Assembly (NCBI GenBank): GCA_963841435.1
Contig: CAWJCS010000005.1
Coordinates: forward strand, 1,184,001 to 1,248,000
DNA: 64,000 nt
Source: an uncultured delta proteobacterium
GTDB lineage: Bacteria > Myxococcota_A > Polyangia > Polyangiales > Polyangiaceae
Direction of reading: 5' to 3'
Made by a program: the position numbers and the translations under genes
In this document: in pieces, positions 47,431 through 53,417 of the stretch
Layout of the letters: every line of letters starts with the position of its first letter
Position numbering within the stretch: the first letter of the stretch is position 1
The notes under the pieces: generated by a model
What the model was told of the DNA's origin: nothing
The model's input: only the letters and a program-made list of their open reading frames with translations
Database searches by the model: none

Positions 47431-48777
47431 TCACGGGGGGTGCTGGGCCTTCCCGGAAGTACCCGGGGAGCCTCCCGAAAAGGCCGCCGTGAGCACGCGC
47501 GATGCATAAGGCAAAATCAGCCCAGGAAGTCCGAGCCGCGGCGCGAGGAGCCCGGCGAGTCCGAACAAGAGGACGAGCGTGCGCTCGACGTAAAAGTATC
47601 CGTCGGGGTATTCGACGCTCTTCATGACCTGCCGCAGATGCCCGCGCATCTGACGATACCCGGAAAGCCTCTCGAGCTCCGCGCGATCCAGGCGAGAAAA
47701 ATCGCCGATCTTGGTGTTACCGAGCACCTTCAGGTACTCGCGACCCACCTTGCGCAAGAGCTCCTGGTCGCCTCCCGGCGCGACGAAGCCCATGTGCTCG
47801 AGACCCCGCAAGATGCGCTCGTCGTCCTTCGCGAGGACGCCGAGCACGACGCCCTTCATACCCTCCGCGAGGGCCGGCGTGACGTCCTCGACGGCGCCGA
47901 AGTCGAGCAGCACGAGCTTCGGTCCCGGCCGGACGAGGAAGTTGCCCGGGTGCGGGTCGGCGTGGAACACGCGGTGATCGAGCAGCATCTGAAAGTAGCA
48001 CTCCGCGAGCAGCTTCCCCACGGCCTCCGGATCGATGCCCGCCGCGCGCTGCGCTTCGACATCCGACACCTTGATGCCGGGCTCGAACGACATCGTGAGC
48101 ACGCCGCCACGGGTGAGCTCGCCGACGACGCTGGGAATCACCACATCCTCGCGACCCGCGAAGACGGCGCGGAGGCGCTCCATGTTCTGGCGTTCGTGCG
48201 CGTAGTCGATCTCGCGCGCCAACATCGAAGCAAGCTGATCGAGCATGCGCTCCACGCGAGCGATGGGGAGGAAGAGCCGAATCATCGGCATCACCGAGCG
48301 CAGCACGCCGAGATCGCCGGCGATGAGGCGCTCGATGTTCGGGTAGCGGACCTTGACGGCGAGGTCGCGACCGTCGAGCGCCGTGGCGCGGTGAACCTGA
48401 GCGAGCGATGCCGCCGCCAGTGGCTCGCGCTCGAAGCTGCCGAACCGCGCGAGCGCATCGGGACCGAACGCTTCCTCGAGGCGACCCGCGACCTCGTCGA
48501 AGGGTCGTGGCGGCACCTTGTCTTGTAGCTCTTCGAGGGCTTCCCCGAACGCGGGCGGCAGAAACGTCGCCGTGACGCCGAGCACTTGCCCGATCTTGAT
48601 GAAGACGCCGCGCAGCGAGGAGAAACCGTGCGCAAGGCGGCGCGCGTTGCGCCTGTGCGCACGCTCGAAGAGCCGTGCGCCGCGCTTCTCGCCGACGAGC
48701 TTCGCGAGCACCCACGTCACGCCGTACGACGCGAAAATCGACCAGAACAGCGTGAGTGCGCGCAGCGAACGGAGCAC
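47431..48777 (-). CDS. ABC1/UbiB family atypical kinase
   Basis: FIKIGQ, AAASLAQVH, AVKV, FHADPHPGN, LDFG. Confidence 0.92.
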   Translation of the reverse strand: MLRSLRALTLFWSIFASYGVTWVLAKLVGEKRGARLFERAHRRNARRLAHGFSSLRGVFIKIGQVLGVTATFLPPAFGEALEELQDKVPPRPFDEVAGRLEEAFGPDALARFGSFEREPLAAASLAQVHRATALDGRDLAVKVRYPNIERLIAGDLGVLRSVMPMIRLFLPIARVERMLDQLASMLAREIDYAHERQNMERLRAVFAGREDVVIPSVVGELTRGGVLTMSFEPGIKVSDVEAQRAAGIDPEAVGKLLAECYFQMLLDHRVFHADPHPGNFLVRPGPKLVLLDFGAVEDVTPALAEGMKGVVLGVLAKDDERILRGLEHMGFVAPGGDQELLRKVGREYLKVLGNTKIGDFSRLDRAELERLSGYRQMRGHLRQVMKSVEYPDGYFYVERTLVLLFGLAGLLAPRLGLPGLILPYASRVLTAAFSGGSPGTSGKAQHPP

Positions 48778-48803
48778 GAGGCGGGTAGCCTAGTTCGCGT
48801 CCG

Positions 48804-48935
48804 GCCTTCGCGCTTGATTCGCGCCCGCAAGCACGAAAAATCGCAGGCAACACCCGCCGGTGCCCCCCTCGCGCCCAGCCTTCGCGCTTGATTCGCGCCC
48901 ACAAGCACGAAAAATCGCAAAACAACACCCGCCGG
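48804..48935 (+). repeat. Two direct copies (57/58 bp) of a REP-like imperfect hairpin
   Basis: Copies at 48804-48860 and 48878-48935; arms TTCGCGCTTG / CAAGCACGAA. Confidence 0.85.
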
Positions 48936-48970
48936 CCCCGCGCTCGTGCTCGAGCTCCCCGCCACACACC

Positions 48971-49300
48971 CCACTTCGTGCACCTCGCGCCCCCCGCGCG
49001 GCTGACAAGCCACTTCGTGCACCTCGCGCCTTACCCGACCCCGCGCGGATGACAGCGCCACTTCGTGCACCTCGCGCTCCCCGCGCGACTGACAGTGCCA
49101 CTTCGTGCGTCTCGCGCTCGTGCTCGAGCTCCCCGCCACACACCCCACCTCGTGCACTTCGCGCCCCCCGCGCGGATGACAGCGCCACTTCGTGCACCTC
49201 GCGCCTTACCCGACCCCGCGCGGATGACAGCGCCACTTCGTGCACCTCGCGCCTTACCCGACCCCGCGCGGATGACAGCGCCACTTCGTGCACCTCGCGC
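48971..49300 (+). repeat. Array of eight 20-bp cores with 19-28-bp recurring linkers
   Basis: CCACTTCGTGCACCTCGCGC at 48971, 49010, 49058, 49098, 49145, 49185, 49233, 49281; copies 4 and 5 each have 2 mismatches. Confidence 0.92.
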
Positions 49301-49400
49301 CTGTCCAATCGCCTCCCCAACGCGACGCACGGCCAGATGACTCAAACTCGCCCGGGACCACTGGACGCGGCCCCCAACTCATATTATAGCCTCTTTCAAG

Positions 49401-50177
49401 TTGAGACGAACGCGAGAACGCACCCTCCCGATTCGGGGCGAACAGCTGGCTCTCCCCCTCAGGGGTCCGTGGGGCGGCAGGCGGTCTCACGCCGGGCGCA
49501 AACCAGGCCCACAGCCGAAGACGCCGCACCGCGCGCGGCCACGCCATCAGGCGGGGCACCCCGTGCACGTCACACTGCGCGCGGGGCTCGGCTCGCTGCG
49601 CAGCCAACATCTGTACCCGACGGTGCGGCTGGCGATTGCCCGATCTTCACGCCGCGATCCCGCGCGGTTTCGCATTCCCGAGTTTTCCGTTCAGGACAAT
49701 CATGTCCACTTGCTCGTCGAGGCGCGCGACGCGCGAGCGCTTTCGAGCGGCGTGCGCGGGCTCGCCATCCGAATCGCGCGCTACGTCAACGACCTGCTCA
49801 TGCGTCGCGGGCGCCTCTGGGCGGACCGGTGGCACGGCCGAGACCTGAAGTCGCCCCGCGAAGTGCGCGCCGCGCTCGTTTACGTTCTCGCCAATTTTCG
49901 CAAACACGCGCGAGGCCCGCTCCCCGGAGGAATCGATCCCTGCTCCTCCGCTGCTTTTTTTGGGGGTTTTCGAGGTTGGAACCCCGAAGCCTCGGGGCAC
50001 CCCCCGTTCGTCGGGCGTGCGCCGCCCGTGTTCGTCGACCTCGAGCACCGCGGGCGAGGCGCTGACGAACCTGCGAGACCGGTCGTCACGGCAAAAACGT
50101 GGCTCTTGAGACTCGGGTGGCGGCGTTCGGGCCTCATCGGCCTCCACGAAGCGCCGAAGCCAAACCTCCGCCGCTGA
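49401..50177 (+). mobile_element. Y1/HUH tyrosine transposase-like nuclease (RAYT / IS200-like superfamily)
   Basis: HVTLR, QDNHVHLLVE (HUH at 49701-49709), YVLAN (Tyr at 49881), DP.SS; flanked by repeats; start codon uncertain. Confidence 0.85.
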
Positions 50178-50183
50178 GGCTGT

Positions 50184-50467
50184 GGTCGCTCGCCGCGCCA
50201 CCCCGCCGCTCGCCGTGCCACCCCGCCGCACGCGGTCGCTCGACGTGCCACCCCGCCGCACGCGGTCGCTCGACGTGCCACCCGCCGCACGCGGTCGCTC
50301 GGCGTGCCACCCCGCCGCACGCGGTCGCTCGACGTGCCACCCCGCCGCACGCGGTCGCTCGACGTGCCACCCGCCGCACGCGGTCGCTCGACGTGCCACC
50401 CCGCCGCACGCGGTCGCTCGACGTGCCACCCCGCCGCACGCGGTCGCTCGACGTGCCACCCCGCCGC
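50184..50467 (+). repeat. Tandem array of about eight 30-bp units plus a degenerate leading copy
   Basis: Unit CGCGGTCGCTCGACGTGCCACCCCGCCGCA from 50231; two units are 29 bp (C3 instead of C4). Confidence 0.95.
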
Positions 50468-50486
50468 TCAAGGCCGCACGCGGCGC

Positions 50487-51089
50487 TCAGAACGCGAGGT
50501 ACGGCAGTTTTGCGGCGGTGGACTTCACTTGCTCGGTGCCGTCGAGCAGCTGCCCGATGGGGTCCCACTCGCCCTTGACGAGCGCGTCGCGCGCCGCCGG
50601 CTTCATCGTCGCCGGAAAGCTCAGCGAGCCGGCGCTCACGGTGCCGCTCCCGAGATCAATCGTGAGCTCGAGCGCCGGATCGTTCTCGATCGCGGCGGCG
50701 AGCGCGAGCACGGCGTCGTGACTCACCGACACGCAGGGCATCCCGAGCGTCGTGGAGTTGCCGAAGAAGATCTCGGCGAAGCTCTCGGCCACGACGGCCC
50801 GGATGCCGAACTTCGCGAGCGCCTGCGGCGCGTGCTCGCGCGAGGACCCGCAGCCGAAGTTGGCGTTCGAAAGCAGGATCGAAGCGCCCGCGAAGCGCGG
50901 GTCGTTGAGCGGGTGAGTCTTCGGCTTGCCGCTCTCGTCGAAGCGAACGTCGTAAAAGAGCGACGCGCCAAGACCGTCGAACGTGACGCACTTCATGAAG
51001 CGCGCCGGAATGATGCGATCGGTGTCGATGTCGTCGCCCGCAACGTAAACACCGCGCCCGGTTACCTTCGTGATCTTCTCGAGTGCCAT
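50487..51089 (-). CDS. leuD: 3-isopropylmalate dehydratase small subunit
   Basis: DIDTDRIIPARF, NFGCGSSREHAP, SFAEIFFGN. Confidence 0.97.
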   Translation of the reverse strand: MALEKITKVTGRGVYVAGDDIDTDRIIPARFMKCVTFDGLGASLFYDVRFDESGKPKTHPLNDPRFAGASILLSNANFGCGSSREHAPQALAKFGIRAVVAESFAEIFFGNSTTLGMPCVSVSHDAVLALAAAIENDPALELTIDLGSGTVSAGSLSFPATMKPAARDALVKGEWDPIGQLLDGTEQVKSTAAKLPYLAF

Positions 51090-53123: not shown

Positions 53124-53228
53124 GCACGACTTCGCGCCGCACGACTTCGCGCCGCACGACTTCGCGCCGCACGACTTCGCGCCGCACGACCTCGCGCCGC
53201 ACGACCTCGCGCCGCACGACTTTGCGCG
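53124..53228 (+). repeat. Seven 15-bp tandem repeats
   Basis: GCACGAC(T/C)TCGCGCC; last copy degenerate. Confidence 0.93.
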
Positions 53229-53240
53229 GCGCGACCACCC

Positions 53241-53327
53241 CGCCCGCTGCCGCCGCACCGCGCGACGCACCCGCTCCGCCCGCCGCCGCCCGCTGCCGCC
53301 GCACCGCGCGACGCACCCGCTCCGCCC
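53241..53327 (+). repeat. 41-bp direct duplication
   Basis: Copies at 53241-53281 and 53287-53327. Confidence 0.85.
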
Positions 53328-53417
53328 ACCGCCGCCCGCGGCCGCCGCGACGCTCGACCCGTCGCCGCCCGCCGCCGCCTGGTGCGCCCGAGCGACGCCG
53401 GTTGGCGCGGGGGCGGA

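Follow-up and report, generated by a model that had tools for sequence, protein, structure and literature searches.

Here, we present an analysis of a Y1/HUH nuclease gene that sits between two different arrays of direct repeats in a 64,000-nt stretch of DNA (the window) from an uncultured delta proteobacterium of the Polyangiaceae (assembly GCA_963841435.1, contig CAWJCS010000005.1, positions 1,184,001-1,248,000, forward strand). We found that genes of this family have tandem arrays in their immediate flanks, both in this genome and in relatives, and that this link is a trait of the family and specific to it. The units of the arrays are local, non-palindromic, and change quickly. Comparisons with relatives indicate that the window gene and its arrays (48793-50470) form an old insertion in the spacer between leuD and a kinase gene. 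The explanation that we favor, and to which we give about an even chance of being correct, is that the gene is an IS200-like single-gene element from a Y1 clade rich in Polyangiaceae and that its enzyme amplifies the element's end sequence in cis. Coordinates are window positions unless prefixed C2 to C6, which denote contigs of the same assembly (called G000); L-numbers denote loci and G-numbers genomes of relatives.

Tandem arrays beside genes of the Y1/HUH family

The G000 assembly comprises 7.78 Mb in 6 contigs, has a G+C content of 68.7%, and is 95% complete. A genome-wide census (period of at least 10, score of at least 100) gave 322 arrays, which account for 0.74% of the bases. The genome contains six Y1 paralogs, lettered A to F with the window copy as A; the other five are 46-76% identical to A at the protein level, and copy D is frameshifted. 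All six have an array within 1.5 kb (12 arrays, 3,771 bases). Among 5,000 random sets of six G000 sites, the mean was 0.96 arrays and the maximum 6, and at most 5 sites of a set had an array. Other mobile-element genes had an array within the same distance in 2 of 21 cases (3 DDE_Tnp_1, 8 rve, and 10 phage-integrase genes). A rough split into coding and noncoding arrays gave 63 noncoding-like ones with a length of 150 bp or more, and 10 of these fall inside the 1.5-kb zones around Y1 genes, which make up 0.28% of the genome; part of the 53 arrays away from Y1 genes look like coding repeats. A preliminary description of the locus had suggested asking whether similar arrays are equally common elsewhere; the 12 arrays against 0.96 expected and the 2 of 21 other mobile genes argue that they are not.

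The link extends to relatives. Of the 41 genomes searched, 21, with G000 among them, have 1-18 matches to the family per genome, and 20 of 29 loci besides the window have an array in a flank of up to 1.5 kb; several of these arrays reach contig ends. A matched control with 20 regions, none longer than 20 kb, gave an array cover of 19.8% within 1.5 kb of the gene (11,013/55,680 bases) and of 2.3% beyond (6,391/283,180 bases). Arrays are present at 14/14 copies in G003 and at 2/6 copies in G025, a genome from another family, in this set of regions. Across 79 public loci, array cover declines from 9.3% at 0-0.5 kb to 3.5%, 2.8%, 0.9%, and 0.6% at 0.5-1, 1-1.5, 1.5-2, and 2-3 kb, respectively; 39 of these loci, and 17 of the 20 nearest, have an array within 1 kb. 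Of 52 pooled loci, 40 have at least one side with an array and 21 have two such sides; at least one such side is present at 30/36 same-genus loci outside G000 and at 4/10 loci from other families. The loci compared share kinship, and all these counts overstate independence. The expectation that homologs consistently carry flanking arrays was borne out, with 6/6 copies in G000, 14/14 in G003, and a decay with distance in the public loci. Neither homologs without arrays nor arrays equally common at other sites describes these data, because the link is family-wide and gene-specific. The genes often lie close to contig ends, i.e., within 1.6 kb for 9/18 copies in G003 and within 1 kb for 26/79 public loci, and the arrays offer a practical explanation for this position in Polyangiaceae assemblies.

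These data bear on the possibility that the arrays reflect ordinary replication slippage in unconstrained intergenic DNA or an artefact of assembly. Other parts of the genome do contain arrays, the assembly is not error-free, as homopolymer runs that reach 1,573 bases indicate, and no read-derived contig spans the arrays: the five Logan contigs on the stretch (from three soil-metagenome runs of one study) are 39-305 bases long, have low depth, and none crosses an array. However, no random set among the 5,000 came to 12 arrays or had arrays at all six sites, the Y1 genes differ from other mobile genes (6/6 versus 2/21), and independent assemblies of many species show the link together with a smooth decay with distance. 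Moreover, the period is divisible by 3 in 35/84 Y1-adjacent arrays, which is the noncoding expectation, versus 29/35 distal arrays, suggesting that the distal arrays look like coding repeats. Chance or artefact, largely refuted by these controls, is therefore highly improbable.

The gene, its repeat blocks, and the insertion site

The gene (49401-50177, + strand) is intact, starts with TTG, and encodes 258 aa. The protein contains the motifs D-N-H101-V-H103-L and A-L-V-Y161-V-L-A-N-F, i.e., the HUH histidines H101 and H103 and a tyrosine, Y161, in YVLANF; in an alignment of 89 sequences, H101, H103, Y161, and N165 are each at least 90% conserved. The Pfam family Y1_Tnp (PF01797) scores 22.5 bits on the open reading frame (ORF) by hmmscan, against a cut-off of 23, and 24.0 bits in a six-frame genome scan, in which 4/6 paralogs pass. 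The NCBIfam model REP_Tyr_transpos (NF047646) gives 28.2 bits against a cut-off of 80, and none of the six paralogs (19.9-40.1 bits) passes. Searches of PDB sequences with the protein and with an 18-sequence profile gave no relevant match. An AlphaFold model from the 89 sequences (predicted local distance difference test [pLDDT] score, 86.7; predicted template modeling score, 0.81) places Y161 in a predicted helix at residues 152-163; it supersedes an earlier model from 18 sequences, which had a pLDDT score of 51.8 and weak fold matches. In Foldseek, the top PDB match of the model is 4er8_A, the E. coli RAYT with a repetitive extragenic palindromic (REP) hairpin (E 5.7e-6, 132 columns, 20% identity), followed by the IS608, ISDra2, and IS200 transposases. 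Altogether, 28 PDB chains match at E <= 0.001, and the top 19 shown are all Y1 transposases (4er8, 2vjv, 2a6m, 2xo6, 2f4f, and others). The model and its fold matches have the beta-alpha-beta-beta-alpha-beta arrangement of the HUH fold. Because of the conserved HUH and tyrosine motifs, the 89-sequence model, and the PDB matches, we identify the protein as a Y1/HUH nuclease whose predicted fold is closest to those of RAYTs, in agreement with the preliminary description of a RAYT-like gene with intact HUH and Tyr.

Beyond this fold, the family has conserved additions at the N terminus (QL-L-PF...WGG-R--AGRKP) and at the C terminus (TWLL--GWRR-GL). It comprises 6,470 clusters at 50% identity (E <= 0.001), and databases name the relatives 'putative transposase' or 'REP element-mobilizing transposase RayT'. 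The nearest public loci are mainly from metagenome-assembled genomes (MAGs) of Polyangiaceae, with some from Planctomycetota and Thermodesulfobacteriota, and the family is, contrary to what had been proposed, not restricted to myxobacteria.

The inserted segment is ~1.68 kb long (48793-50470, + strand) and consists of left repeats, a non-repeated core of ~0.88 kb with the gene (49303-50186), and a right array. On the left, a 74-bp module that holds GCGCTTGATTCGCGC is duplicated (48795-48935, + strand; x1.9 with 91% matches in Tandem Repeats Finder), and a terminator-like site lies on the minus strand within it (48857-48843). A nested array follows (48943-49302, + strand). By direct reading and repeat search, it consists of a ~175-bp super-unit present twice, with four 20-bp cores each and related linkers of 19-28 bp; Tandem Repeats Finder resolves 48971-49302 as a period of 48 x6.9 or of 87 x3.7. 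The 64-kb window contains eight copies of the core pattern CCACYTCGTGCRYYTCGCGC, each of them on the + strand and within 48971-49300, and 100 shuffles of the window contain none. The linkers between the cores are four identical 28-mers and three related 19-20-mers. Because of these hierarchical super-units with mutually related linkers, the left block is not a repeat-spacer array. Between this block and the gene, direct reading and motif comparison show a non-repeated 5' region (49303-49400, + strand) that contains the AT-rich box TATTATAG and, around the start codon, TTCAAG-TTG, which is common to paralogs A, D, and E; a sigma-70 consensus scan found no promoter in this region.

On the right, two to three degenerate 20-bp proto-units, which include CCGCCGCTCGCCGTG, head the array (50187-50233, + strand; 20 bp x2.3 in Tandem Repeats Finder). 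The array itself (50207-50467, + strand) is called as 30 bp x8.8 with 96% matches, and its unit holds GCCGCACGC, a 9-mer. The units are spaced by 30, 30, 29, 30, 30, 29, and 30 bp; this alternation comes down to one C in a C-run, which may be genuine or may stem from a homopolymer error during assembly. On the + strand, C exceeds G in both blocks, where (C-G)/(C+G) per 100 bp is +0.18 to +0.42; the flanking genes have values near 0. The similarity score of left versus right units is 9, below the 95th percentile (10) of between-locus pairs, and a CGTGC(C)ACC motif common to the left core and the right unit was rejected on this basis. Thus, the left array of 8 x 20-bp cores with linkers and the right array of about 8 x 30 bp are both present as first described, and the reported lack of tnpB and cas genes extends to the whole 7.78-Mb assembly, in which we found no match to a TnpB zinc-ribbon family and none to Cas1.

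Two minus-strand genes flank the segment. On the left is a gene for an ABC1/UbiB-type atypical kinase (47431-48777; Pfam ABC1, E 2.7e-66), which lies directly downstream of leuD in relatives. On the right is leuD, for the small subunit of 3-isopropylmalate dehydratase (50487-51089; Pfam Aconitase_C, E 7.1e-22; synteny), with its stop codon 19 bp from the end of the right array. The distance between leuD and the kinase gene abc1 is 1,710 bp in the window versus ~70 bp in L056, ~70 bp in L062, and ~120 bp in L060. The empty ubiB-like/leuD site that the preliminary description had suggested looking for in relatives is found in these three loci, and by-eye comparison with them places the left insertion border just after TAGCCTA (48786-48792), the last host bases kept in the empty sites. 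Among 16 leuD loci of relatives, one of which is from the unpublished genome G046 (used for no other claim), none has a Y1 gene beside leuD, and four have the kinase gene within the flank. The leuD-abc1 spacer appears to be a recurrent landing place, since L052 (in G056), the fourth of these loci and the nearest relative by leuD DNA (80% identity), has a different insert of ~775 bp in it. The L052 insert contains an unrelated small ORF with a lipoprotein-like N terminus (MRKLVLAVVGLTGTLALGCSS...).

A second insertion is indicated at paralog E, where G000 has 3.29 kb (arrays, gene, arrays, and ~670 bp more) and three relatives have ~25-45 bp; in five relatives, a repeat scan of the equivalent site found no arrays. 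For paralog F, the right-hand neighbor was not found within the 1.5-kb flanks of the relatives' loci, and no empty site could be defined there. The additional ~670 bp at paralog E (C6:469469-470137) hold a small, Cys-containing + strand ORF right after a 39-bp x17 array, and this array might be part of the 5' region of that ORF.

If the arrays came first, i.e., if the element prefers to insert in or beside tandem repeats or slippage-prone DNA, the link would reflect target choice. This explanation draws on the insertions of A and E within tens of bases of a stop codon and on the short, GC-rich spacers of relatives with small palindromes, as well as on a recently multiplied subfamily (see below), in which arrays lie outside a conserved 0.92-kb unit and differ by copy. 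However, the empty sites are array-free, both at A (three spacers of ~70-120 bp, read directly) and at E, and some arrays consist of element-derived sequence, i.e., an iterated 5' motif, a 21-mer at L002 and L003, and a 15-mer shared by A and B. Also, the relatives' native spacers are not significantly like the window units: an origin of the arrays from the native leuD-abc1 spacer is unsupported by 18 comparisons (best z of 3.09, the rest at most 2.15), and a 12-base identity seen by eye between an array end and one relative's spacer is within chance. On balance, we consider target choice quite improbable.

Array units and how they may arise

The Y1-adjacent arrays have a median period of 44 bp (10-228), 2.8 copies (at most 21.6), and 91% matches. 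When units or unit pairs of the window were folded, with both strands included, the nine z values relative to shuffles ranged from -0.30 to +1.87; among these, the 74-bp module had z of +0.81 and +0.30 (+ strand) and -0.15 (- strand), and the right array had z of +1.87 and +1.41. REP-like hairpins in the units were therefore rejected, and the 'duplicated hairpin' described in front of the left array is indeed a duplication (74 bp x1.9) but, with folds no better than shuffles, not a significant hairpin. Searches for the window units elsewhere in G000 returned only chance 15-19-mers and one 28-nt match at 93% identity, and no REP-like 16-mer is abundant in the genome: once a single homopolymer and the CGT/ACG triplet runs are set aside, no 16-mer exceeds 30 copies. 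One 16-mer, TAGCACTACTGTCAGA, is a dispersed repeat with 22 copies in G000. In exact scans of metagenome contigs, the 30-bp unit had no match, and the 20-bp core had 20 single matches in separate contigs and no array, which we take as chance. No Rfam family matched at E <= 0.1. A CRISPR array was rejected based on the interrelated linkers, the spacer-free right array, and the lack of Cas1 in the genome. Terminal inverted repeats were not found at 48700-50600, where none of six inverted-repeat pairs is terminal; the longest (arms of 31-35 nt, 71-74% complementarity) pair a stretch of the gene with a stretch of the right array. Altogether, the arrays are neither REP hairpins, CRISPR repeats, nor coding repeats. 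The claim that the repeats are direct and C-rich on the + strand stands for both window blocks, but not as a rule of the family: on the sense strand, 17 upstream arrays are C-rich and 15 are G-rich, while the downstream arrays divide 20 to 5. A C-rich sense strand was accordingly rejected as a general rule for upstream arrays.

The preliminary description had suggested testing whether the units co-vary with the protein tree. They do not: similarity of units between loci does not rise with protein identity, and no units are common to the two loci in any of the 18 pairs whose proteins are at least 80% identical, while ~3-5% of more distant pairs do share units. A Polyangiaceae MAG with eight copies (L155, L160, L163, L166, L168, L171, L172, and L174) at ~86-95% protein identity is informative about the mobile unit. 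The DNA common to these copies is only ~0.92 kb, with ~75 bp 5' and ~130 bp 3' of the gene, and homology stops sharply at the borders. The unit has a conserved 5' end, CTTCATGAACTGAC...TAAAATTAGTGCC, and a 3' hairpin, GGAGGGC-CGA-GCCCT; arrays lie outside the unit or at its borders, differ by copy, and are absent from L155, L171, and L174. These copies look like an insertion sequence (IS) of ~0.92 kb that is currently or was recently active. Similarly, L002 and L003, from different genomes and with 93% protein identity, have 838 bp in common in different contexts. A 21-mer in their 3' flank is present in ~9 regular copies in one and in 3-4 degenerate copies before the contig end in the other, arguing that the element can take along a portion of an array and that the copy number of this portion can change.

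Several short sequences recur between ends and arrays. The 5' motif CCGAATCAAG (at most one mismatch) is found upstream at 20/52 loci and downstream at 2/52, is often iterated, and has a density of 1.27 per kb upstream versus a background of 0.03-0.05 per kb. The 15-mer CCGCCGCTCGCCGTG, from the head of the window right array, has one copy in the 3' flank of paralog B. The 9-mer GCCGCACGC, which the window right array shares with arrays at four other Y1 loci, is present in seven arrays at five loci versus 0.475 expected, including the downstream array of paralog F, and CGTGCGTCC is present in arrays at four loci versus 0.108 expected. Based on these comparisons, some units derive from element ends, yet they are locus-specific.

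Such shared cores would also be expected if the arrays were functional cis elements, i.e., iteron-like binding or cleavage sites for Y1 mobility or regulation, or a non-palindromic counterpart of REPs and bacterial interspersed mosaic elements (BIMEs) that selection maintains for a role as transcriptional insulators, terminators, or RNA elements between the neighboring host genes. In support of such a function, GCCGCACGC and CGTGCGTCC are common to arrays whose units are otherwise unrelated, similarity is slightly higher between the upstream and downstream arrays of the same locus than between loci (Mann-Whitney p 0.004 direct, 0.024 inverted), downstream arrays are mostly C-rich on the sense strand, and arrays start within 100 bp of the stop codon at 13/29 loci. 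BIMEs, as tandem REP pairs, are described at RAYT loci in the article text of PMC8266576. However, the units do not co-vary with the protein, copies at ~86-95% protein identity have different arrays or none, and the left and right units of the window are no more alike than chance pairs. In addition, there is neither a structure signal nor an Rfam match, and a range of periods from 10 to 228 bp is hard to square with one recognition geometry. We therefore consider a function of the arrays in cis unlikely, although its probability is far from negligible.

Returning to enzyme-driven amplification in cis, we propose that the arrays are local amplifications of sequence at and beside both ends of the element. 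Of the ideas in the preliminary description, an enzyme that nicks and amplifies its flanks agrees best with the data. The enzyme would act preferentially in cis on single-stranded DNA during replication and nick at short cores near the ends, e.g., at GCCGCACGC on the right. Out-of-register rejoining, or a leftover nick that provokes slipped or re-primed synthesis, would lead to the gain and loss of units, and arrays would build up and turn over at each copy. We infer that the enzyme causes the amplification and acts in cis because the link sets this family apart from mobile DNA generally, because it fades within ~1.5 kb, because young arrays (91-100% matches) lie beside old, diverged genes, and because the units are partly derived from the ends yet locus-specific.

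Several points weigh against this explanation. Arrays are less regular in distant homologs, with arrays at 4/10 loci from other families and at 1/7 Planctomycetota copies; moreover, short-read MAGs may break or collapse arrays, and the kinship of the loci compared means that independence is overstated. The empty sites are from other species, with leuD DNA that is 74-80% identical, and the arrays could therefore predate the insertion in this lineage. Solved Y1 transposases recognize hairpins, in keeping with the titles of the matched PDB entries, while the units here have no significant secondary structure. Finally, arrays occur without a Y1 gene: a perfect 23-bp x17.7 array (C5:1744407-1744814) has no Y1 match within 1.5 kb and lies 21 kb from paralog B.

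A bolder version of enzyme-driven amplification is that the clade is a repeat generator, in which each copy would make or remodel arrays de novo from the bordering sequence by repeated nick-and-rejoin on single-stranded DNA. We consider this possible, if doubtful. If true, it would be a bacterial counterpart of rolling-circle satellite formation and could represent the missing intermediate from IS200-type elements to REPs and BIMEs, with local amplification of ends first and dispersal later. How RAYTs make and spread REPs is still unsettled. Y1 genes that are tied to local, non-hairpin, fast-changing arrays without dispersed repeats offer a system in which to watch HUH-driven repeat birth directly, and possibly an intermediate stage between insertion sequences and domesticated REP systems. 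If the enzyme is not the cause, the strong link between gene and arrays still needs another explanation.

Comparison with known systems and other repeats in the genome

As proposed in the preliminary description, the layout fits neither the REPtron nor the classical IS200/IS605 element: the units are not hairpins and not dispersed, and the Tyr motif and hairpins of either system are lacking. The window feature is a Y1 transposase-plus-repeat variant, i.e., a relative of IS200 elements and RAYTs for which the REPtron-defining tests are negative. The flanks of the published Y1 classes carry subterminal hairpins, REPs, atypical secondary structures, or terminal inverted repeats, or have no such feature. 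In literature searches and in term look-ups in the main text of Di Nocera et al. 2013 (PMC3733652), Quentin et al. 2018 (PMC6006769), Bertels et al. 2017 (PMC5581495), and Corneloup et al. 2021 (PMC8266576), no Y1 gene with direct arrays of non-palindromic units in its flanks is described. In a term look-up in these texts, 'tandem', 'array', and 'direct repeat' are absent from PMC6006769, 'tandem' is absent from PMC5581495, and 'tandem' refers only to BIMEs in PMC8266576.

Like the REPtrons (E. coli yafM/rayT, PDB 4ER8; Pseudomonas; Stenotrophomonas), the window locus has a Y1/HUH enzyme with 4er8_A as the top fold match and a gene embedded in repeats on both sides, and its relatives are named RayT; BIMEs can also be tandem, according to the text of PMC8266576. 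Unlike in REPtrons, the window units are direct and non-palindromic, do not alternate in orientation, and have no copies outside the locus, and there is no abundant genomic 16-mer. Also, the gene is inserted, multi-copy (six paralogs), and patchy among relatives, and scores far below the REP_Tyr_transpos cut-off (28.2 versus 80 bits). REPs at RAYT genes are typically inverted and have a GTAG-type foot at the 5' end; units bearing GTAG are found in the flanks of two relatives only, L003 and L009. In Table 1 of PMC6006769, the Tyr motif is Y---Q in class 1 and Y---NP in class 2. The motif here is Y---NF, with Phe for the Pro of class 2 RAYTs, and YVLANF also lacks the glutamine of class 1, to which IS200/IS605 belongs.

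The locus resembles IS200 in its single Y1 gene, the lack of tnpB, the empty site, and, in relatives that multiplied recently, a mobile unit of ~0.84-0.92 kb whose 3' hairpin is conserved. With respect to mobility, A and E are insertions relative to relatives and one Polyangiaceae MAG has eight copies at ~86-95% identity, while the G000 paralogs are diverged. In contrast to IS200, the protein is ~100 residues longer owing to the conserved N- and C-terminal additions, the G000 paralogs are only 46-76% identical to the window copy, and the window copy has no subterminal hairpins (z of -0.3 to +1.9). These hairpins may have been lost or overwritten in the window copy, as the recently multiplied subfamily keeps the 3' hairpin. 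Flanking tandem arrays are not mentioned for IS200/IS605 in the text of PMC6006769.

The TIRYT/TIRtron group (TnpAY1 subclass 2.1), as described in the texts of PMC3733652 and PMC6006769, is similar in being RAYT-like, in its ~240-aa proteins, and in the lack of REPs; Table 1 of PMC6006769 lists it as prevalent in delta-proteobacteria, among others. Low copy number and diverged paralogs are further similarities. The terminal inverted repeats given for TIRYTs in these articles, GGGG[AT][CG]A[CG], differ from the direct arrays without terminal inverted repeats that we find here. Also, the window protein has no Pfam match for the C-terminal helix-turn-helix of DnaA_C type. Helitron-type and other rolling-circle HUH elements generate head-to-tail copies of their ends; their enzymes are Y2 Rep-helicase fusions in eukaryotes, or IS91/ISCR transposases, and not Y1. 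As HUH nucleases with multiplication of ends, they would be the closest analogy for the mode of action, but no helicase is encoded in the window element, and we treat the likeness as a lead.

Additional repeats are found at other sites. In the window, a 46-bp x2.5 array with 94% matches (53124-53348) separates leuC from the gene that follows, at a distance of ~3 kb from the Y1 gene, and a minus-strand ORF at the same position reads as AKSCG repeats. Nine noncoding arrays of G000 have large periods (~100-180 bp; examples are C4:111071, C6:1393318, C4:21268, C5:1091391, and C5:1476576), and 5/9 lie no more than 200 bp from a tRNA gene (Leu, Asp, Thr, Arg, and Ser); these tRNA-adjacent arrays may reflect repeated duplication of attachment sites by integrative elements. 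Two very long homopolymer tracts, A x1573 followed by T x445 at C2:851351-853368 and runs of 191 and 354 at C6:1694929-1695473, are probably assembly artefacts, and a 148-bp x3.3 array stops 25 bp before the A x1573 run. Among relatives, the Y1 copies of a Planctomycetota MAG (L154-L167) are 82-88% identical in DNA and have a 190-bp upstream module with a palindrome of ~88 bp; at L164 and L159, the whole Y1 gene is tandemly duplicated with a period of ~1.37-1.40 kb.

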